From Bacilli bacterium (GTDB taxonomy: Bacteria; Bacillota_I; Bacilli_A; ML615J-28; CAG-698), in contig JBMNLZ010000001.1 of NCBI GenBank assembly GCA_050953065.1, forward strand, positions 128,001 to 192,000: DNA of 64,000 nt, given 5' to 3'. The translations under genes were made by a program, and so were the position numbers. Below are positions 30,712 through 45,317 of the stretch, one piece after another; the first letter of the stretch is position 1, and every line of letters begins with the position of its first letter. The notes under the pieces were generated by a model. It saw only the letters and a program-made list of their open reading frames with translations, ran no database searches and was not told where the DNA came from.

Positions 30712-30738
30712 AAGAAGGTTATTTTAACCTTCTTTTTT
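30710..30738. terminator. Bidirectional terminator between gpsA and recU
   Basis: AAAAGAAGGTT-ATTTT-AACCTTCTTTT between convergent stop codons. Confidence 0.8.
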
Positions 30739-31299
30739 GTTGAAATACAAATAATCTATAGTTTTTAAATAATTAATCATTGGAGTATAACCAGTTTCTA
30801 CTTTTTCTCCAACTTTAGATATTTTAGTAAGACTAATACTTTTACATCCTGAATCAATTAAATTCATAAGAGAAGTGATATCTAGTATAAAAACTTCATT
30901 TACTGTCTTAAAATAAATAATTAAAAAAGCAATTCCTCCCATTTGGTGTACATTTATTAAATGTTTTATTTGATGTTCAGAAATATTTTTAAATGGAAAT
31001 AAGTTAGAATTTGTTTCTTTTGCTTCAAAATCAATATATTTTCCTTTATAGATACCATTATAATCAGTAGTAGAAGCTGTTCTATAATAAGCCTCAGTAA
31101 TCTTAGCGCGTTCTCTTTTTGGATATTCAACTTTAACAACTTGAATAGGCGTAGGTTTTTTATGAATATTAGCTATGTTATTAATTAAGTAATATTCATT
31201 TGACAAGTTAATTTGATTTTCAAAAAGCATTCCTAAGGACCTAATTTTTGTTGGGTTGACAATATTTTTTTTAGTACTATTTGCATAATTTATTTTCAT
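30724..31299 (-). CDS. recU: Holliday junction resolvase RecU
   Basis: HKKPTPIQVVKV, STTDYNGIYKG, DFEAKET and HQI motifs. Confidence 0.96.
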   Translation of the reverse strand: MKINYANSTKKNIVNPTKIRSLGMLFENQINLSNEYYLINNIANIHKKPTPIQVVKVEYPKRERAKITEAYYRTASTTDYNGIYKGKYIDFEAKETNSNLFPFKNISEHQIKHLINVHQMGGIAFLIIYFKTVNEVFILDITSLMNLIDSGCKSISLTKISKVGEKVETGYTPMINYLKTIDYLYFNKKEG

Positions 31300-36011: not shown

Positions 36012-36908
36012 ATGTTAGAAAATCTATTTTCAGAATATAAATATTACCTAGAAGGTGAAAGCAATTTAAGTATAAGCTCTATAAAATCTTACTTAAAAGA
36101 CGTATCTCAATATACAACTTATTTATCAAAGTACCGTAATATATCTTTCCCTGAAAAAATTACAGTTGATGACATAAGATCGTTTTTAGGTAGTCTAAAT
36201 CGAAAAGGGCTTTCTAGTTTATCTCAAGCACGGAAAATTTCAAGTATTAAATCATTTCATAAATTCTTGATGCTTGAAAAAATTACTTCTACAAATGTTG
36301 CTAAATTAATCTCTAACCCTAAAATCGAGAAAAAACTCCCTGTAACGTTTTCTATACAAGAAATTGATTTGCTTTTAGAACAATTTAAACCTGATTCTCC
36401 TTTAGGTATAAGAGATAGAGCTGTTGTAGAGTTGCTTTATTCATCAGGATTAAGAATTTCAGAATTAGTAAATTTAAAGTTAGAGGACCTACATTTGGAA
36501 CTTAATTTTATTAAAATTACTGGAAAAGGGAACAAAGAAAGGATTGTTCCTGTGGGCGAAATTGCGATAGATTATTTAAACAAATATTTATCTGAATCAA
36601 GACCTTTTTTAAACAAAAAACATAATAACTGGGTATTTCTTAGTAAAAATGGTAGTCAAATTAACAGACAAACCATTTTTACTACCTTAAAAGAAAAAGC
36701 AAAACAAGCAAATTTAAGCGAATCCATCTCACCACACAAACTTAGACATTCTTTTGCATCACATTTACTAGAACAAGGGACCGATTTAAGATTAATTCAA
36801 GAACTTTTAGGACATGAAGATATTTCAACGACTGAAATATATACTCATGTAAATGATTCAAAATTGAAAGAAACTTATTTAAAATCACATCCAAGGTCTA
36901 AAAAATGA
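36012..36908 (+). CDS. xerD: Tyrosine recombinase XerD (RipX-like)
   Basis: LYSSGLRISE, GKGNKER, HKLRHSFASH and LGHEDISTTEIY motifs; xerD-deoB order as in Bacillus ripX-drm; dif 2.4 kb away. Confidence 0.88.
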   Translation: MLENLFSEYKYYLEGESNLSISSIKSYLKDVSQYTTYLSKYRNISFPEKITVDDIRSFLGSLNRKGLSSLSQARKISSIKSFHKFLMLEKITSTNVAKLISNPKIEKKLPVTFSIQEIDLLLEQFKPDSPLGIRDRAVVELLYSSGLRISELVNLKLEDLHLELNFIKITGKGNKERIVPVGEIAIDYLNKYLSESRPFLNKKHNNWVFLSKNGSQINRQTIFTTLKEKAKQANLSESISPHKLRHSFASHLLEQGTDLRLIQELLGHEDISTTEIYTHVNDSKLKETYLKSHPRSKK

Positions 36909-36918
36909 AAGGATTTAT

Positions 36919-38100
36919 ATGTATAAAAGAATATTTTTGATAGTTTTAGATTCTTTAGGCGTTGGTGCTTTACCAGATGCTGATTTATATGGTGATTCTA
37001 ATACTAATACTTTGAAAAATTTAAGTTTTTCAAAAAAAGATTTTAATATACCTAATCTTTTTAAATTAGGAATAGGATCAATAACTAAAGTTAATAATAC
37101 TCCTTTAAATAGTGTTCCCGTTGCATCTTTTGGGAAAATGAACGAAGCAAGTTATGGAAAAGATACCTTAACAGGGCACTGGGAATTAATGGGAATTATC
37201 ACAAAAACCCCCTTTAAAGTCTTTGATAAAGAAGGTTTTCCAAAAGAATTAATCAAAACTATTGAAAAAATCTCTGGTTTTAAATTAATTGGTAATTATG
37301 CATCTAGTGGCACTGAAATTATAGAGGTTTTAGGCGAACAACATATAAAAACTAAAAAACCAATTATTTACACATCTGTAGATTCTGTTTTACAAATAGC
37401 TGCACATGAAGAGATTTTCGGTTTGGAAAATTTATATAAATTGTGTGAAATTTCTAGAAAAATAACGCTAGAAAATCCTAAATGGAAAGTCGGTCGAATA
37501 ATAGCTAGACCTTTTTTAGGTGATAAACCTGGACATTTTTATAGAACGCCTAATAGAAGGGATTATTCAGTATCTCCACCAGAAACAACTGTCCTAGATA
37601 TTTTGAAAAATAACGATTATGATGTTATTTCTATAGGTAAAATTAGCGATATTTTTAATAATCGAGGAATAACTAAAAAAATCAAAACTAAATCAAATGA
37701 TGATGGAATAAATAAGCTAATAGAAATTCAAAAAAAAGATTTTACAGGCTTATGTTTTGTTAATTTAGTTGACTTTGATGCAAATTATGGACATAGAAGA
37801 GATGCATATGGATATGCTTTAGCTATGGAAGCTTTTGACAAAAAACTAAGCGAAATTTTTAAAAACTTACTATCGGATGATTTAATTATCTTCACTGCTG
37901 ATCATGGAAATGATCCAACACACGACGGAACTGATCATACTAGGGAATATGTCCCTCTATTAGTATATGGAAAAAAAGTAAGAAATATTAATTTAGGAAC
38001 AAGAGAAAGTTTTGCTGATGTGGGGGCTACCATCTTAGAGAACTTTAAACTTTCTGATTCTAAAAAAGGAAAAAGTTTCCTTAATGACATAAAAAAATAA
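36919..38100 (+). CDS. deoB: Phosphopentomutase
   Basis: LDSLGVG, GKDTLTGHWE, NLVDFD..YGHRRD and ADHGNDP..GTDHTRE motifs. Confidence 0.96.
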   Translation: MYKRIFLIVLDSLGVGALPDADLYGDSNTNTLKNLSFSKKDFNIPNLFKLGIGSITKVNNTPLNSVPVASFGKMNEASYGKDTLTGHWELMGIITKTPFKVFDKEGFPKELIKTIEKISGFKLIGNYASSGTEIIEVLGEQHIKTKKPIIYTSVDSVLQIAAHEEIFGLENLYKLCEISRKITLENPKWKVGRIIARPFLGDKPGHFYRTPNRRDYSVSPPETTVLDILKNNDYDVISIGKISDIFNNRGITKKIKTKSNDDGINKLIEIQKKDFTGLCFVNLVDFDANYGHRRDAYGYALAMEAFDKKLSEIFKNLLSDDLIIFTADHGNDPTHDGTDHTREYVPLLVYGKKVRNINLGTRESFADVGATILENFKLSDSKKGKSFLNDIKK

Positions 38101-38261
38101 AATATATTTAATCAGCAATAATAGAGAGCTCGTACAAAACGATTATCTTTTTAAATGGGCAAATTATAAAGTTAAAGTTTTCTAACAGCCTCTAATCAGC
38201 CTTTTTTCAGGCGTTTTTCTCAAAAAAACTAATATTTTTAATAAATAATCGGAGGAATATA

Positions 38262-38678
38262 ATGAAAAGTTTTAGAAAAGAATTGATTATTAACACAGCA
38301 AGTAGAAGAACTTTTATTAATATAACTAGGCAAGTAAATGATGCACTTAAAGAAAGCCAAATTAAAGAAGGTATTTTGCTATGTAACGCAATGCACATAA
38401 CTGCTAGTGTTTTCATAAATGATGATGAATCTGGTCTCCATCAGGATTTTGAAGTTTGGCTAGAAAAATTAGCTCCTGAAAAACCATATTCACAATATAA
38501 ACATAATAGCTATGAAGACAACGGAGATGCACATCTAAAAAGATCTGTTATGGGAAGAGAAGTTGTTGTTGCTATTACTAATGGAGAATTAGATTTTGGT
38601 CCATGGGAACAAATTTTTTATGGTGAGTTTGATGGTAAAAGAAACAAAAGAATTCTTATTAAAATCATAGGGGAATAA
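38262..38678 (+). CDS. yjbQ: YjbQ/UPF0047 family protein
   Basis: [19 protein letters not shown] and [13 protein letters not shown] motifs. Confidence 0.92.
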
Positions 38679-38710
38679 TAAAAAACGCCCTAAAACAAGG
38701 CGAAAAGTGT

Positions 38711-38736
38711 TCTGTGAGAAGATTATCTTTTTTAAG
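38711..38736 (+). repeat. 26-bp inverted repeat, left copy
   Basis: TCTGTGAGAAGATTATCTTTTTTAAG; 25/26 identical to the reverse complement of 39625-39650. Confidence 0.9.
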
Positions 38737-38866
38737 ATAGTGAATTATACATAACCTTTTTATAAGAGACTTATATACATAACTTTAAAATAAATTTTAT
38801 CTTTTTTTATTTTAATAATTTAAAATATTAAACGAAGTAATTATTTGATTCATAAAAATAATTCCT

Positions 38867-38892
38867 AACTGCTTTCAAAAGCAGTTTTTTTT
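38867..38892 (+). terminator. Intrinsic terminator inside the terminus intergenic region
   Basis: AACTGCTTT-CA-AAAGCAGTT plus T-tract. Confidence 0.7.
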
Positions 38893-39341
38893 ATTTTTTT
38901 ATTATATCCATTTTTATATATAGAAGAAGATTTATTTTTTTAAAGAAAATTTACAAGTTTAAAATTCTTTAAAAACTAAACTTATTCAATTTAAAAAGGA
39001 TAGCGTTATCTAAAGTCATTATATAAACATTGATATATAAAAAGATATTCGCTGGAATATAGAAAAAAACAAAGTTATGACAACAATAATGTTAAATTAA
39101 CTTTAAAAACTGTTTTATTAATTATCATATTAACATACTCAAATCCTAATATGGCTATATTTAACGCTCTTCAAGTTGTTCTGCATCATAAAACATCACT
39201 TATAAAAGTACTCATTCGCTTAAAGCGAGATTTTTTTAACAAAAAAACCACAATATTAACTTTTTTAAAAAAGCCCAAAAAGCAAGTTATCAACAGTTAT
39301 CAACGGTTGTTATTTATTAGCGTTTTACGTACATTATTCTT

Positions 39342-39369
39342 ATTTAACATAATATATATTATAGGAAGT
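39342..39369 (-). other. dif: dif site (Xer chromosome dimer resolution site)
   Basis: Minus strand reads ACTTCCTATAA-TATATA-TTATGTTAAAT, matching the Bacillota XerC arm, a 6-bp spacer and the XerD arm; located at the switch in gene orientation. Confidence 0.93.
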
Positions 39370-39624
39370 TGAATAAGAATCAAAACGAACTAAGAATTAA
39401 AGGCAGAATATGTGACTTTAACTAAATCAATACTTATTCTTCTATTGCTTTAGTTATGCTTTATAATGGGTGTTTTTCCCCCTAGAATCGATTTTAATAG
39501 TTTTTATCAATATAATTACGAACTATATATATTACCAAAATAAGCAATTTTTTAAGTTTGTTTTTTTCATGCTTATATAGGATATATAAAGTTTGTTTAA
39601 ACCTTTTTAATTTACTTCCCATTG

Positions 39625-39650
39625 CTTAAAAAAGATAATCCTCTCACAGA
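39625..39650 (-). repeat. 26-bp inverted repeat, right copy
   Basis: Minus strand reads TCTGTGAGAGGATTATCTTTTTTAAG. Confidence 0.9.
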
Positions 39651-39682
39651 GCGAACAAATTTTATAAGTTTGTTTGAAATAT

Positions 39683-39711
39683 AAAAAAATAGGGATTTTT
39701 TCCCCTATTTT
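39683..39711 (-). terminator. Terminator of the parE-parC-fic operon
   Basis: ATAGGG/CCCTAT stem with an A-tract on the left. Confidence 0.7.
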
Positions 39712-40710
39712 AATTTTCTCCATTTTGCGGATCTGCCTTTACCTATCGGCTTGATTACTCCAGCCTCTTTCATTTTAATCAAACTTCTATTTATAGTAGA
39801 TTCGCTAATGTATGGATAGAGTTCTCTCAAATCGTCTTTTGAAAAAATGCTCCCCATATTTAAAATACTGTTTTCTAAATTTTCTGACTTGTTCATCCTA
39901 CGGTCAAACTCATAATTTTTAACCAACTCTTCAGTTTGTTTGTATGCTGCAAGCGACAAATTTAAAATAAAGTTAACAAAAACAATCGGCTGTGCATAAC
40001 CTTCTTTCCAATTAAAACTAGCATCTTTTAAATTGTTCTCATAATCATCAAAATTATCAAGTAGTAACTCAAAAAAACTAACATATTTAAATGCATTAAC
40101 TTCGCTTTTTAAAACCGTCAAATATAGTAATAAATAAGCTATTGTTTCATTTTTATCAGTAAAAGGAGCTAAATTATAAAAATCTATAAAATAATGAGTA
40201 TATAAAATAATAGATTCAACTGTAGATTTTTGAATGTTTTCAGTTAGAAAATCATGATATGAGTTTAACATGGAACGCTTATTTACCATTTCTTGGCTTT
40301 TTAAAGATATTCTTTTGCTAGAGGCCATCATAGCATATTTTATTTCAGATTTATATATATAATTAACCATATTTAGTAAATCATTGCTTTGAATAGCTAC
40401 TGTGTTAGTTTTTTTTTTGACAAATCGTGATTATTTCTTTTAAATTATATAATATAGATTCTTCTTTGTTTCTAGGATGAGAATCTTTAGTAATAATTAG
40501 TCTCATTCTTTGATCACTAATATTTAATTTTAACAATACAGCCAAAAAATATGTGTCTTTTTCAATAGTAGCTTCTACTGCTTTATCATTGTCACTTCTC
40601 AACACGTCTTCATAGTGTTTGTTTTTCCCAATGCATTTATAAACTTGAGCAATATTATAAATTACATCGTTTGGAATTATTAATCGATTTATATTTTCTA
40701 TAGAACTCAT
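39705..40710 (-). pseudogene. Fic-fold + C-terminal wHTH protein with a degenerate active site, split by a frameshift in an A10 tract
   Basis: ORFs 40405-40710 and 39705-40370 join into one 334-aa frame if one base of T10 at 40409-40418 is removed; Fic-like motif APFTDKNETIAY; wHTH tail ISESTINRSL..MKEAGVIKPIGKGRSAKW. Confidence 0.75.
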
Positions 40711-40719
40711 TTTTTCCTC

Positions 40720-43191
40720 CTAAATATCGTTATTATTACGAAGAATAACTAACTTTTCAGGTTTACCTAAATTAGCTTTCAACGGCGTTTTTTTACCGTT
40801 ACTTGGAGTAGAAGATTTCAAAATACTATATTCGATTGGTAAAAAACCTTTTGTGCAAGCAATATAGCAATCTAATTCTTCAGAGATATTCTTTCTTCTA
40901 ATAACACAAGCATCTAAAATGTAGTTTTGTCCACCCTTTGATTGCTCTAGGTACAATTTACCTACATTATTTTTTTTGCCTTTTGATATTTCGTCAACTT
41001 TTAATCGTTTTATAGCGCCTTTTGATGTTAATAAAGTAACAATATCTCTTTTATCAACATACCTACCAGCGACAACCTCATCATGAACTCTGTTCTTCAA
41101 TTCTATTGATTTAACACCAAACGAAGCAGGAGCCATAATAGAAATCTCATCAGCATCGTATTTATTAATGTATCCTTCTTTAGTTATTACAACTACTTCA
41201 GCATCTTTTGCAGGACATATATCTACACTTACTAAAGCATCGCCTTTTCTTATTTTAGTTGCTCTTAAGGCTCTAGAATATCTATCTGCCACTAAATCTG
41301 AGATAGGTGTACGTTTAATCAAACCATTTTTAGTAGCAAAAATTACATATATATCACTATTAAAATCACTAATTGGAACTGAAAAAATAATTTTTTCATC
41401 TAAATCAATTTTTACCAAAGTACTAACATGATATCCTAAATCTTTATGTTTTACTTCAGGAATTTTTTGAACTGGTAAATAAACATAATTTCCTTTATTA
41501 GTAAACAATAAGAATGTATCTAAAGTTGTAGCATCGAATTTTGCGATTATTATGTCTTCTTCTTTTAGTTTTGTAGGCTCCGGAGTATTATATGACCTCA
41601 ATGAAAGCCTTTTAATATATCCATCATTTGTTAATAACAAGACTACATCTTCTTTTGCGATTAATTCGTTTACTTCAACTTTGACTTCTTCTATTTCATG
41701 CTCAATAACTGATTTTCTATCTTGTTTTAAAACATCTAAAGTCTTTAATAATTCTTTTTTAATCAAAGAGAACAAAGCAGTTTCATTTGAAAGAATTTGT
41801 TGTAACTTCTTTATATAGTCCTCTAATTTTCCTTTTTCATCTCTTAAAGCATAAATATCAGTATTAGTAAGTCTATATAATTGTAGCATTACAATAGCTT
41901 CAGCTTGTTCTTCGGTAAAATCATATTTTGCAACTAAGTTGTCTTTTGCGTCTTTTTTATTAGCAGAACTTCTAATAGTTTGAATTACTGCATCTAGAAT
42001 AGAAATCATAGCTATTAAACCATCTACTATATGTAATCTTTTTTGAGAAAACTTTAACTCATAATTAGAACGGTTAGTAAAGATTTGTTTTTCATGCTCA
42101 ATATAAGCATCTAACATATCCAGCAATCCCATACTCATTGGTTTTTTTTGATTAATTGCTACCATATTAAAATTATAATTAATTTGTAAATCAGTAGCTT
42201 TAAAGAAAAAATTGCGAATAAACTCAGGATTAGCATCTTTTTTAATATCTACAACTATTCTTAAACCACTTCTATCTGATTCATCTCTAATATCAATAAT
42301 TCCATCCACGTTTTTAGCAACATAAACATCACTCATTTTCTTAACAAGAATACCTTTGTTAACATCATAAGGAATCTCGGTAATAATTATTTTATTAAGG
42401 TTCTTCTCTTCAACAATTTCCGTTTTTGCTTTTAAAATTATTTTCCCTCTACCAGTTTTATAAGCAGCTTTTATTCCTTCAAGCCCCTGAACTATTCCAC
42501 CAGTCGGAAAATCTGGCCCCTGAACTATTTGCATTATATCTTCTAGAGTACATTTTGGATTATTAATTCGATATATTACAGCATTAATAATCTCAGTAAT
42601 ATTGTGTGGAGGAATATCTGTTGCATAACCAGCTGATATTCCAGTAGCTCCATTTACTAAAAGATTTGGATATTTTGCAGGCAAAACGGTTGGCTCATAT
42701 TCTTCATCATCAAAATTAGGTACAAATCCCACAGTCTTTTTGTTTATATCACTTAATAAATATTCTGCATATTTACTTAGTCTAACTTCTGTATACCTCA
42801 TAGCTGCAGCAGGATCGCCATCAATACTACCATTATTACCATGCATTTCTATAAGTGGTAAACGATATTTAAAATCCTGTGACATCCTTACCATGGCATC
42901 ATATACTGATGTATCACCATGCGGATGATATTTACCAATAACCTCACCAACGATTCTAGCCGATTTCTTAAAAGGTTTGTTTGAAAATATGCCTAATTTA
43001 TACATCGCAAACAAAATTCTTCTTTGAACAGGTTTTAAACCATCTCTAGCATCAGGAATCGCTCTATCTTGAATAATATAGCGAGAATATCGACCAAATC
43101 GCTCACTAACAATATCTTCTAAATTTTCTTGAATAATAGATTCTTCAACATGATCTGAGATTTTTTTAGCTATTTCACTCTTTTTCTTCAT
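40720..43191 (-). CDS. parC: DNA topoisomerase IV subunit A
   Basis: [33 protein letters not shown] and AAMRYTE motifs; follows parE. Confidence 0.95.
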
Positions 43192-45127
43192 AAGAATCTA
43201 CCTCCTCAAGCGTAAAATTATCTTCATAATCAAAAGATACATTATTATCTATCCATTCACGACGTGGTTCTACATCATCTCCCATTAAAATTGAAATTCT
43301 TGAATCAGCATCTCCAAAATCTTCAATTTTAACTTGAATTAGTGTTCGTGTTTCAGGGTTCATAGTAGTATCCCAAAGTTGGTCAGAATTCATTTCACCA
43401 AGCCCCTTAAATCTTTGAATCATAACATTCTTTTTGTTTCCAACTTTTTCTTTTAATTCATCATCAGACCAAGCATATTCATAATCATTTTTAGAAGTTG
43501 TTATCTTATAAAGTGGTGGCATTGCAATGTAAACTTTTCCACTTTCAATTAATCCCCTCATGTATCTAAAAAAGAAAGTCAAGAGTAAAACTTGAATATG
43601 AGCACCATCTGTATCAGCATCAGTCATAATGATTACTTTATTATAATTACTTTTTGAAGCATTAAAGTTTCTACCAAAACCAGCACCTATTGAAAAAATC
43701 ATCGACATAATTTCTTCATTTTTAAGCAATTCTTCTGTTTTAGTTTTTTCAGAATTTATTATTTTTCCTCTTAAAGGTAGGATTGCCTGGAATGTACGAT
43801 CCCTTCCTTGTTTGGCAGATCCACCCGCTGAATCTCCTTCAACAATAAATAACTCATTTTTATTAGGATTTTTATCTTGAGTAGGAGAAAGTTTTCCTGC
43901 TAAATTTGCCGACTTTGTTTTAGTTTCTTTAATCATCCTAACTTCATCTCTTGCTTTTCTAGCTGCTTCTCTTGCTTTAGAAGCCTTAATTGCATTTTGA
44001 GTTAGTAAAGTAGCAATCTCTCCATTTTCAGCTAAGTAAAATTTTAATTTTTCACTTATTACCATTTCAACAGCAGTTTTTGCATCAGCTGTACCTAATT
44101 TAGCCTTTGTTTGCCCTTCAAATTGAAGTAATTTTTCTGGTATTCTAATAGATAAAACTGCCGTCATTCCTTCCCTTATATCTATCCCCTCTAAGTTCTC
44201 ATCTCTTTCTTTTAATAAACCTTTCATTCTAGCATAGTCATTAAAAGCTCTAGTTAAAGCAGATCTAAATCCAGTTTCATGTGTTCCACCATCTCTTGTT
44301 CGAATATTATTAACAAACGACAATAATGTTTCAGTATAAGATTTTTTTGTATATTGTAAAACAGCTTCTACTTGAATTTCATCGTATGTGCCTTCTAAAA
44401 CAACTGGTTCATTGATTATTTCTTTATCTTGATTAAGTGATTTAATGTATTCTACAATTCCTTCATTAAATTGAAAAACATCTCTTTGATTAGTTCTTTC
44501 ATCAATTAATTCTACTTTAAGTCCTTTAATAAGATATGCTGCTTCTTTTAACCTTTGTGCACAAAGTTTATAATCTATTATAGTAGTTGAAAAAATATTT
44601 GCATCTGGTTTAAAATGAACTGTTGTACCAGTCTTTTTAGTTTCACCCAGATTTTTAGGTTTTTCAATAATTTTACCACCGTTTGCATATCTTTGATAAT
44701 ATATTTTATTATCACGATGAATAGTTAATTCAACCCATTCGCATAAAGCGTTAACTACACTGGCACCTACTCCGTGAAGTCCACCAGCTACCTTATAAGC
44801 ACCACTGCCATCAAATTTTCCTCCAGCATGTAAAAGGTTATAAACGACCTCTGGTGTAGGTCGCCCTTTTTCATGCATACCAGTAGGTATGCCTCTTCCG
44901 TTATCTTGCACTTCTACTGAATTGCCTTCGTGTATTATTACTCTAACATTATTTGCATATCCAGCTAAAACTTCATCAACACCATTGTCAACAATCTCCC
45001 ATATTAATTGGTGTAATCCTTTTGAATCTGTTGACCCAACATACATACCTGGTCTTTTTCTAACCGCTTCTAAACCTTCTAAAATTTGAATTGATTTTTC
45101 ATCATATTTTTTAATCATTTTCGCCAT
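43175..45127 (-). CDS. parE: DNA topoisomerase IV subunit B
   Basis: [38 protein letters not shown] and VEPRREWI motifs; divergent from plsY as in Bacillota parEC; AGGTGG RBS before the ATG at 45127. Confidence 0.94.
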
Positions 45128-45317
45128 TTCAACCACCTATATATAATATTATATCATATATTAAATCAAATTTCAATCAATAAAATAGATGTTTAAATTG
45201 CCTCATTAGGTGCATATGAGTATATTAAAGTTTTAAAAAAACAAAAAAATTGTTTAGTTTTTTATGTTTGCTTTTAATCAAATATTATTATATAATATAG
45301 AATACGGAGTTGAGTAT

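Follow-up and report, generated by a model that had tools for sequence, protein, structure and literature searches.

Fic proteins whose C-terminal domain is a winged helix-turn-helix (wHTH) have been described from several bacteria. SoFic of Shewanella oneidensis (SO_4266; 3EQX, 3ZEC) is a class II Fic protein that carries such a domain and forms dimers; it AMPylates EF-Tu and also binds to its own promoter, at no more than 100 bp from the start codon (bioRxiv 10.64898/2026.07.09.737422). CccR of Yersinia pseudotuberculosis AMPylates FtsZ and represses its own promoter, where it binds palindromes as a dimer (PMC9755527), and CbFic2 of Coxiella burnetii (8CIL) is reported to be regulated by DNA binding via its C-terminal HTH (PMC10628234). 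These three sources name EF-Tu, FtsZ and histone H3 as the targets of the class II Fic-wHTH group and report DNA binding by its members. SoFic, CccR and CbFic2 are active AMP-transferases or de-AMPylases and are accessory or secreted proteins. Here, we describe a family that has the same architecture and fold, whereas it is catalytically degenerate and its gene is a core gene fixed beside the topoisomerase IV (Topo IV) genes parE and parC (parEC) and the dimer-resolution site dif. The member under study lies in a window of 64,000 nucleotides from a Bacilli bacterium (assembly GCA_050953065.1, contig JBMNLZ010000001.1, positions 128,001 to 192,000), in which an original prediction had placed a catalytically dead Fic-wHTH gene as the third gene of the Topo IV operon. 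All positions given below are those of the window unless a related locus is named.

A second group of described proteins, the FicT toxins (VbhT, EcFicT and Fic-1), shares the Fic fold and has a functional link to type II topoisomerases. VbhT is reported to adenylylate gyrase and Topo IV, and the motif of EcFicT is described as 'somewhat degenerated' (PMC5033356). FicT toxins are small, mobile and toxic class I proteins with a separate FicA antitoxin and without a winged helix, whereas the window's family has class II sequence affinity. Nor does the gene form part of a FicTA module, as its upstream neighbor is parC, an antitoxin gene is lacking, the closest relatives are class II proteins and the catalytic motif is lost. 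The FicT precedent invoked in the original prediction is weak for a protein of the class II Fic-wHTH group.

The gene is split by a frameshift in the assembly, and its read-through product was used together with each of the two pieces for domain searches. No Fic model of Pfam or NCBIfam matched any of them, even at E-values up to 10; the sole match in these databases, below the cut-off, was to the winged-helix family PF22168 (DIP2311-like_C, E 3e-4). A profile of 53 homologs, however, matched PDB entry 8uqu_A ('Fido domain-containing protein') over positions 22-335 with an E-value of 3.1e-21. The AlphaFold2 model of the closest homolog, P0002, which was built with the family alignment, had a pLDDT of 90.2. 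In this model, strands 127-129 and 141-143, the flap beta-hairpin, precede the helices of an all-helical Fic core, and the C-terminus consists of a helix-turn-helix and a beta-hairpin wing. Foldseek aligned the model to 8uqu with an E-value of 6e-9 and a TM score of 0.88 normalized to the target, and gave a probability of 1.00 for 8uqu, SoFic (3eqx, 3zec), 7cb8, 4rgl, CbFic2 (8cil), BT_2513 (3cuc) and FICD. The C-terminal region also aligns to the C-terminal domains of 8uqu and 8cil, to the latter by sequence with an E-value of 0.03. The winged helix holds 11 of the 15 invariant columns of a 74-sequence alignment, and its recognition helix is nearly invariant in all family members. Both the Fic fold and the C-terminal winged helix that had been read from the window are borne out by these matches.

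The closest solved relative, 8UQU, is a Fic family protein from Bordetella bronchiseptica for which we found no paper containing the code in the literature. It shares with the window's family the N-terminal helices, the P(K/R)N..E and GW.EG motifs, the winged helix and the GKGRxAKW wing. It also has the canonical IHPFPDGNGR and an SxxxEG inhibitory motif, both of which the window's family has lost. In the alignment, IHPFPDGNGRMS of 8uqu stands opposite lkPFteknetas of the family profile, with PF..N aligned to HPFPDGNGR, and the inhibitory SNRLEG stands opposite l-s-k-i-l-k, so that the Glu is replaced by Leu. The N-terminal inhibitory helix is present in the model, but it does not carry the (S/T)xxxE(G/N) motif. 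As the original prediction had it, the Fic motif of the window's gene is replaced by the degenerate APFTDKNETIAY (40169-40134), with loss of the catalytic His and of the Arg residues. The check across relatives that it had called for gave the same picture. The catalytic motif HxFx(D/E)GNGRxxR was absent, only P, F and N were conserved across 27 and 53 aligned homologs, and the positions of the motif His, the acidic residue, both Gly and both Arg were variable in both sets.

To what distance the degeneracy extends was seen in a profile search of 1.84 billion representatives, which returned 1107 proteins at E-values up to 1e-3 and 122 at E-values up to 1e-30. Of the best 150 representatives, the 109 with at least 300 residues were aligned. 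The motif was degenerate down to an E-value of about 7e-35; below about 3e-33, canonical HPFxDGNGR proteins of the same architecture dominated, with a few degenerate ones in between. Weak matches in other families of the class were canonical enzymes of 350 residues, none of them beside a long ORF (open reading frame) of the size of parC. Because the loss of the motif is family-wide and canonical relatives appear only at the edge of the family, we conclude that the family is a pseudo-enzyme offshoot of the class II Fic-wHTH group. The loss of catalytic and inhibitory residues is family-wide and old.

A total of 179 homologs was found; all those listed were near full length, and every source name shown read 'hypothetical protein'. 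The ORF was intact in 74 of 80 genomic loci, the other six being cut by contig ends. In a sample of 399 scored genomes from the class, the gene was present in 25/25, 23/23, 8/8, 11/12, 30/30, 23/23, 7/7, 21/22, 3/3 and 10/11 genomes of ten families, and in the remaining families it was absent or represented by weak matches only. Acholeplasma-, Anaeroplasma- and Izemoplasma-type bacteria carry it as a core gene in a single copy, and nearly all genomes of about ten families of wall-less-type Bacilli have it. Ratios of nonsynonymous to synonymous substitution (dN/dS, NG86) were 0.025-0.12 in 13 closely related pairs, compared with 0.03-0.12 for ParC and 0.02-0.065 for ParE; in two further pairs dS was saturated. 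The gene is functional and under strong purifying selection comparable to that on parC and parE, and the family does not show the ratio near 1 by which a decaying pseudogene was to be recognized according to the original prediction.

In the window, parE and parC both exceed the NCBIfam equivalog cut-offs for Gram-positive Topo IV, and plsY is divergent from parE. The near-consensus promoter-like site upstream of parE (45176-45148) is the best such site of the operon. The parC stop codon is a TAG at 40722-40720, and the ATG of the pseudo-Fic gene follows 9 nt further on at 40710, with GGAGG at 40720-40716 on the minus strand. At the other end, a terminator-like hairpin (39711-39686) overlaps the pseudo-Fic stop codon (39707-39705). 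Spacing, ribosome binding site and shared operon terminator had all been predicted in this form.

The synteny was compared across the 80 loci, 72 of which had at least 1.5 kb of upstream DNA and were informative for parC. The end of parC lay directly upstream of the gene, at a distance of at most 400 bp, in 60 of these 72 loci and within 4.2 kb in 68. In the eight loci with a distance of 0.5-4.2 kb, parC was on the same strand and other genes were inserted, namely a uridine-kinase-like gene (Anaeroplasma-type), an insertion sequence, an EamA transporter and a Band 7 protein. The Anaeroplasma-type loci L058, L065, L067, L073 and L082 (e.g. L082:4322-5959) encode, between parC and the pseudo-Fic gene, a protein of 545-566 residues whose C-terminal domain is uridine-kinase-like and whose N-terminal part weakly resembles ThrRS. 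No parC was visible in four of the 72 loci; L048, L050 and L078 read rluB-PAP2-gene-PHP, and L073 has just 3.5 kb of upstream DNA. L048, L050 and L078 keep the gene with PHP, dif and xerD but without parEC within 6 kb. In 31 of the 80 loci (e.g. L005:7028-7795 and L048:7038-7832), the next gene after the pseudo-Fic gene, adjoining or overlapping it, is this PHP gene, which is HisJ-family-like, encodes about 260 residues and scores below the NCBIfam cut-offs. In the window's own genome, its homolog lies on another contig (C3:178857-179618). The spacer between parC and the gene is at most 30 nt in about 23 loci, the window with its 9 nt included; in a dozen loci it measures 78-127 nt and contains a long hairpin. 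In Izemoplasma-type loci, parC is followed by a terminator-like hairpin and the gene preceded by promoter-like sequence, within spacers of 117-139 nt. The proposal of a third gene of the Topo IV operon thus fits this window and many lineages, though not all of them, with the Izemoplasma-type loci and L048, L050 and L078 among the exceptions.

The operon points at the replication terminus. Cumulative GC skew peaks at 36-40 kb of the window, and a dif-like 28-mer downstream of the gene is the single match in the 64 kb. Of the 80 related loci, 36 had the same 28-mer, with at most six mismatches, on the downstream side and always equally oriented, without any match elsewhere in those loci (0.81 Mb), and we conclude that the association with dif, on which the original prediction had touched, is real. 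The median distance between gene and dif was 1.03 kb, with 16 sites within 415 bp. Where at least 5 kb of downstream DNA was available, dif was found in 30 of 53 loci, and it was present in all four loci without visible parC. On the far side of dif, and oriented toward it, are UPF0047, a deoB-like gene and xerD (36012-38678), with recU 8 kb further on (30724-31299). Among the 80 loci, 27 had a homolog of xerD across dif and on the opposite strand, and 24 had deoB there. As a single event, the clade in which gene-PHP-dif-xerD is kept without parEC is the clearest. Four complete genomes of the class without the gene, a small sample, had distances between dif and parC of 56, 391, 475 and 615 kb. 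The cluster parE-parC-gene-(PHP)-dif-deoB-xerD is thus characteristic of the lineages that have the gene. A tandem direct repeat, GTTGATAACT GTTGATAACT, was also seen at 39280-39303 on the minus strand, about 50 bp from dif within the 1-kb intergenic region.

The flanking repeats of the original prediction are real: two 26-nt repeat arms, 25/26 complementary, bracket dif. Their 20-nt core occurs in the 1.55-Mb genome in just these two near-perfect copies, none other having fewer than three mismatches; a weaker third copy of the repeat lies 7.8 kb away, inside trmK. In related loci, the core TGAGAAGATTATCTTT (at most two mismatches) had 38 matches, 30 in dif-bearing loci and 8 in others, compared with 2 for the reversed core, which was counted in dif-bearing loci only. 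With at most one mismatch, seven of nine core matches of genome G407 fell within 14 kb around dif, on the plus strand before dif and on the minus strand after it; three of three in G408 were on the dif contig within 25 kb, and five of seven in G406 were on the dif contig. In several genomes the repeat is nearly confined to 10-25 kb around dif, with its orientation flipping there, and it occupies successive intergenic gaps (L022, 5930-12240, seven sites in 7 kb; L019, 5931-12947). The strand polarity was rejected as independent evidence, as purine-rich words are about 80-90% leading-strand genome-wide.

In about ten loci, a copy of the repeat lies 70-85 bp upstream of the pseudo-Fic start codon, in the spacer after parC, as the 5' arm of a hairpin. 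Single-sequence folds gave a hairpin in 12 of 12 spacers, with z of -2.8 or lower in 10 of them. The basal stems are 11-17 bp long and differ in sequence between loci yet still pair, and the hairpins (L027:5902-5985, L013:4232-4318, L034:5877-6003 and nine more) have in common an inner GATTATC...GGATAAT that is conserved. Given their place upstream of the pseudo-Fic gene, they might serve as operators, or else as attenuators or RNA elements of another kind. No Rfam match was obtained in 38000-41000 of the window or in six related loci, and RNAalifold on 15 spacers, whose 3' arms were unaligned, gave no consensus structure. A bipartite pattern (GATTATY, gap, GGATAAT) was discarded, its specificity being no better than that of the control. 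When Izemoplasma- and Anaeroplasma-type loci were searched for a non-coding motif in common, nothing but k-mers from the coding sequence of the gene came up. The features of the window are collected in Table 1.

Table 1. Positions of the Topo IV operon, the split pseudo-Fic gene and the elements around dif in the window
Feature	Position	Strand	Evidence or remark
parE (topoisomerase IV subunit B), with which the operon begins	43175..45136	-	NCBIfam parE_Gpos 963.6 bits (cut-off 900); Pfam domains
parC (topoisomerase IV subunit A), overlapping the end of parE	40720..43191	-	NCBIfam parC_Gpos 954.7 bits (cut-off 813); Pfam domains
N-terminal piece of the pseudo-Fic gene (101 residues)	40405..40710	-	Matches residues 1-100 of intact homologs
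C-terminal piece (221 residues): flap, Fic core, winged helix	39705..40370	-	8uqu_A profile match, E 3.1e-21; fold match
Homopolymer with the +1 frameshift: T10 on the plus strand, A10 in the gene	40409..40418
Degenerate Fic motif APFTDKNETIAY in place of HPFx(D/E)GNGRxxR	40134..40169	-	Aligned to IHPFPDGNGRMS of 8uqu
C-terminal winged-helix region	39717..39857	-	Contains 11 of 15 invariant columns; in the model, helices at 291-297 and 303-315 and strands at 319-321 and 329-332; PF22168
Terminator-like hairpin ending the operon	39686..39711	-
Promoter-like site upstream of parE, TTGAAA-17-TATAAT with TG, 11/12	45148..45176	-	Consensus match only
dif-like 28-mer AACTTCCTATAATATATATTATGTTAAA	39343..39370	-	335 bp past the stop of the gene, at the GC-skew switch
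26-nt repeat arm TCTGTGAGAGGATTATCTTTTTTAAG located between terminator and dif and directed at the latter	39625..39650	-
Second 26-nt arm across dif, inverted, reading toward dif	38711..38736	+	25/26 identical
xerD, convergent with the operon across dif	36012..36908	+	NCBIfam recomb_XerD 343.9 bits (cut-off 329.6)

The original prediction had treated 39705..40710 as one gene and missed the frameshift. In the assembly, this interval consists of two ORFs, 40405-40710 and 39705-40370 (101 and 221 residues), offset by +1 within a run of ten A, and the frame of the C-terminal piece is open from about 40412, that is, back into the A10 run. When one four-base step is read at the run, a product of 334 residues results that aligns end to end with homologs of 334-351 residues. 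A run of nine A (A9) restores the frame and gives ...CQKKTNT..., as in P0002 (80% identical, 334 residues). The genome of the window comprises 1.55 Mb in three contigs at 93.9% completeness, and the sequencing runs that contain the stretch are anaerobic-digester, bioreactor and sludge metagenomes. Contigs of four of these runs (X1, X2, X3 and X17) were compared over 39500-41000. The contigs of X2 (depth 15.5) and X3 (depth 4.2), from two other studies, had one base fewer at 40409 (A9) and no further difference over the 680 and 600 bases covered there. The X1 contig carries A10, as does the window, but X1 is a possible source of the assembly and is not independent; the X17 contigs end at the A run. 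In X3, the A run between GGAGG and the start codon of the gene (40709-40715) was longer by one base, a second difference in homopolymer length between populations. Because X2 and X3 carry A9 without other differences, the split is a sample-specific homopolymer length polymorphism or a read-level error and not decay, and the rest of the gene is without sign of decay. At runs of 9-10 A, sequencing tends to err and transcription to slip, and such slippage can rescue the frame and could yield some full-length protein. In this assembly, the frame is broken by the A10 allele; near-identical populations have the intact A9 allele.

With moderate confidence, we consider the protein best explained as a pseudo-enzyme variant of the DNA-binding Fic proteins that acts at the replication terminus. 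It retains the Fic scaffold and the DNA-binding domain, but the His of catalysis, the glycines and arginines of the anion hole and the Glu of autoinhibition are gone. Its gene is maintained at the terminus; in most cases it comes third, behind parE-parC, and faces dif, on whose other side xerD lies. Because the characterized relatives bind DNA, the winged helix is expected to do so as well, probably with the protein as a dimer. The protein would most likely be a site-specific regulator or an architectural factor of the terminus region and of the Topo IV operon, with the Fic domain serving as a dimerization or protein-docking scaffold rather than as an enzyme. Candidate binding sites are the 16-26-nt GAGAAGATTATC repeats around dif, which in several relatives would include the copy that lies upstream of the start codon by 70-85 bp.

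A number of observations weigh against this explanation. The gene is broken in this very assembly, and both DNA binding and the choice of sites are extrapolated from the characterized relatives and from candidate repeats. The repeat was found solely in the Acholeplasma-like half of the family, despite the nearly invariant recognition helix; its polarity is predicted by purine skew alone (GAGAAGAT, 77 to 17 on the leading strand). The copies in the spacer hairpins fit an RNA or terminator role as well as that of an operator, because the stems differ in sequence but still pair. Furthermore, among the 53 loci for which 5 kb or more of downstream DNA is available, 23 do not have dif next to the gene, and in three genomes checked it was found 6.8, 14.3 and 101 kb downstream, in the same orientation; nearness to dif may therefore be partly inherited gene order. 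Counts of loci overstate the number of independent events, since related loci are kin.

In this strain, the gene could simply be dead, a recent frameshift pseudogene whose family function is dispensable here, which we regard as possible but doubtful. The A10 run is found both in the window and in the independently assembled X1 contig, and besides the own genome three more (G009, G099 and G117) showed in-frame stops among the 150 matches listed in the class search. However, X1 may be the source of the assembly and would then add nothing independent, and the depth is only about 8. Moreover, the intact A9 allele is otherwise identical over 600-680 bases, so any inactivation must be very recent, and a sequencing error at the A run may account for the split, or slippage there may rescue the frame. 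We think it very improbable that the protein is still an enzyme with a non-canonical active site formed by other conserved residues, e.g. the invariant K144/R145, D176/N179 or T48/D52, perhaps together with the neighboring PHP phosphoesterase. Several invariant polar residues do lie outside the winged helix, and the HisJ-family-like PHP gene directly follows in 31/80 loci, but all residues known to bind the nucleotide or to catalyze the transfer are lost or variable, PHP is not linked in the window's own genome, and no precedent was met in the literature searched.

Two further explanations concern the position of the gene next to parEC. Along the lines of the original prediction, the pseudo-Fic domain could dock on Topo IV, either on the ATPase domain of ParE as FicT toxins do or on ParC, and thereby become a stoichiometric subunit that regulates or targets the enzyme, or else a decoy for toxins of the FicT type. 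This would fit the tight coupling to parC (adjacent in 60 of 72 loci, with the short spacers described above), selection as strong as that on ParC and ParE, and the adenylylation of Topo IV by VbhT. Docking is nevertheless improbable in our view: the protein is no relative of FicT but a member of the class II wHTH group, for which EF-Tu, FtsZ and histone H3 are the targets known, what used to be the active-site pocket lacks conservation (His, D/E, two Gly and both Arg vary), L048, L050 and L078 keep the gene with PHP, dif and xerD in the absence of parEC within 6 kb, and many genomes of the class have parEC without the gene. A complex prediction with ParE 1-225, ParC 497-826 and the whole protein (locus L005, separate alignments) scored 0.00 in both runs against a mark of 0.32; it was run without controls and is no evidence either way. 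We found no evidence for the decoy role that the original prediction had included. Alternatively, the protein may be a transcription factor only, an autorepressor or regulator of parEC and neighboring genes like the repressor CccR, with the terminus position being inherited gene order without functional meaning. CccR and SoFic are both reported to bind their own promoters (PMC9755527; bioRxiv 10.64898/2026.07.09.737422), and the Izemoplasma-type loci have promoter-like sequence before the gene and a terminator-like hairpin after parC. This explanation is rather unlikely, given that the two near-perfect repeats of the window lie past the terminators of convergent operons, flanking dif, with no co-oriented gene downstream, that in G407 there is no intergenic gap over 7 kb without such a site, with the orientation switching at dif, and that the linkage to dif and xerD outlasts the loss of linkage to parEC.

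The explanation of a pseudo-enzyme acting at the terminus can be carried further. The pseudo-Fic protein might bind the oriented repeats centered on dif and so form a terminus-specific nucleoprotein device, either a third replication-fork trap besides Tus-Ter and RTP-Ter or an adaptor joining Topo IV and XerCD at dif, all within one cluster parE-parC-gene-dif-xerD; we put this forward as speculative and, on present grounds, not probable. RTP/Ter of Bacillus subtilis and Tus-Ter of Escherichia coli are replication terminator systems, and rtp lies beside a pair of inverted repeats just upstream of its own start. The likeness is one of working principle only, a winged-helix gene beside inverted, oriented (here candidate) sites that bracket the terminus; there is no relation in sequence or fold past the generic winged helix. 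In E. coli, Topo IV binding and activity sites on the genome and XerCD/dif-dependent activity at dif have been reported (PMC4865107). That link is functional, without gene clustering or a dedicated adaptor, whereas here parEC, the pseudo-Fic gene, dif and xerD are physically clustered. Literature searches, judged by titles and the openings of abstracts, turned up no description of a Fic gene with degenerate motif that belongs to a parEC operon or neighbors dif.

A conserved bacterial pseudo-enzyme is added here to the Fic family. Its gene, near-universal and under strong purifying selection in a large group of low-GC bacteria, wall-less and related ones, is annotated as 'hypothetical protein' and covered by no Pfam family. 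An enzyme fold appears to have been turned into a pure DNA-binding or scaffold protein, fixed in one cluster with Topo IV as the decatenase, dif as the site of dimer resolution, and XerD. To our knowledge, it is an open question what coordinates decatenation, dimer resolution and termination in Firmicutes-type bacteria without MukB or MatP. The pseudo-Fic protein would be a testable candidate for such a coordinator, together with a candidate DNA site.

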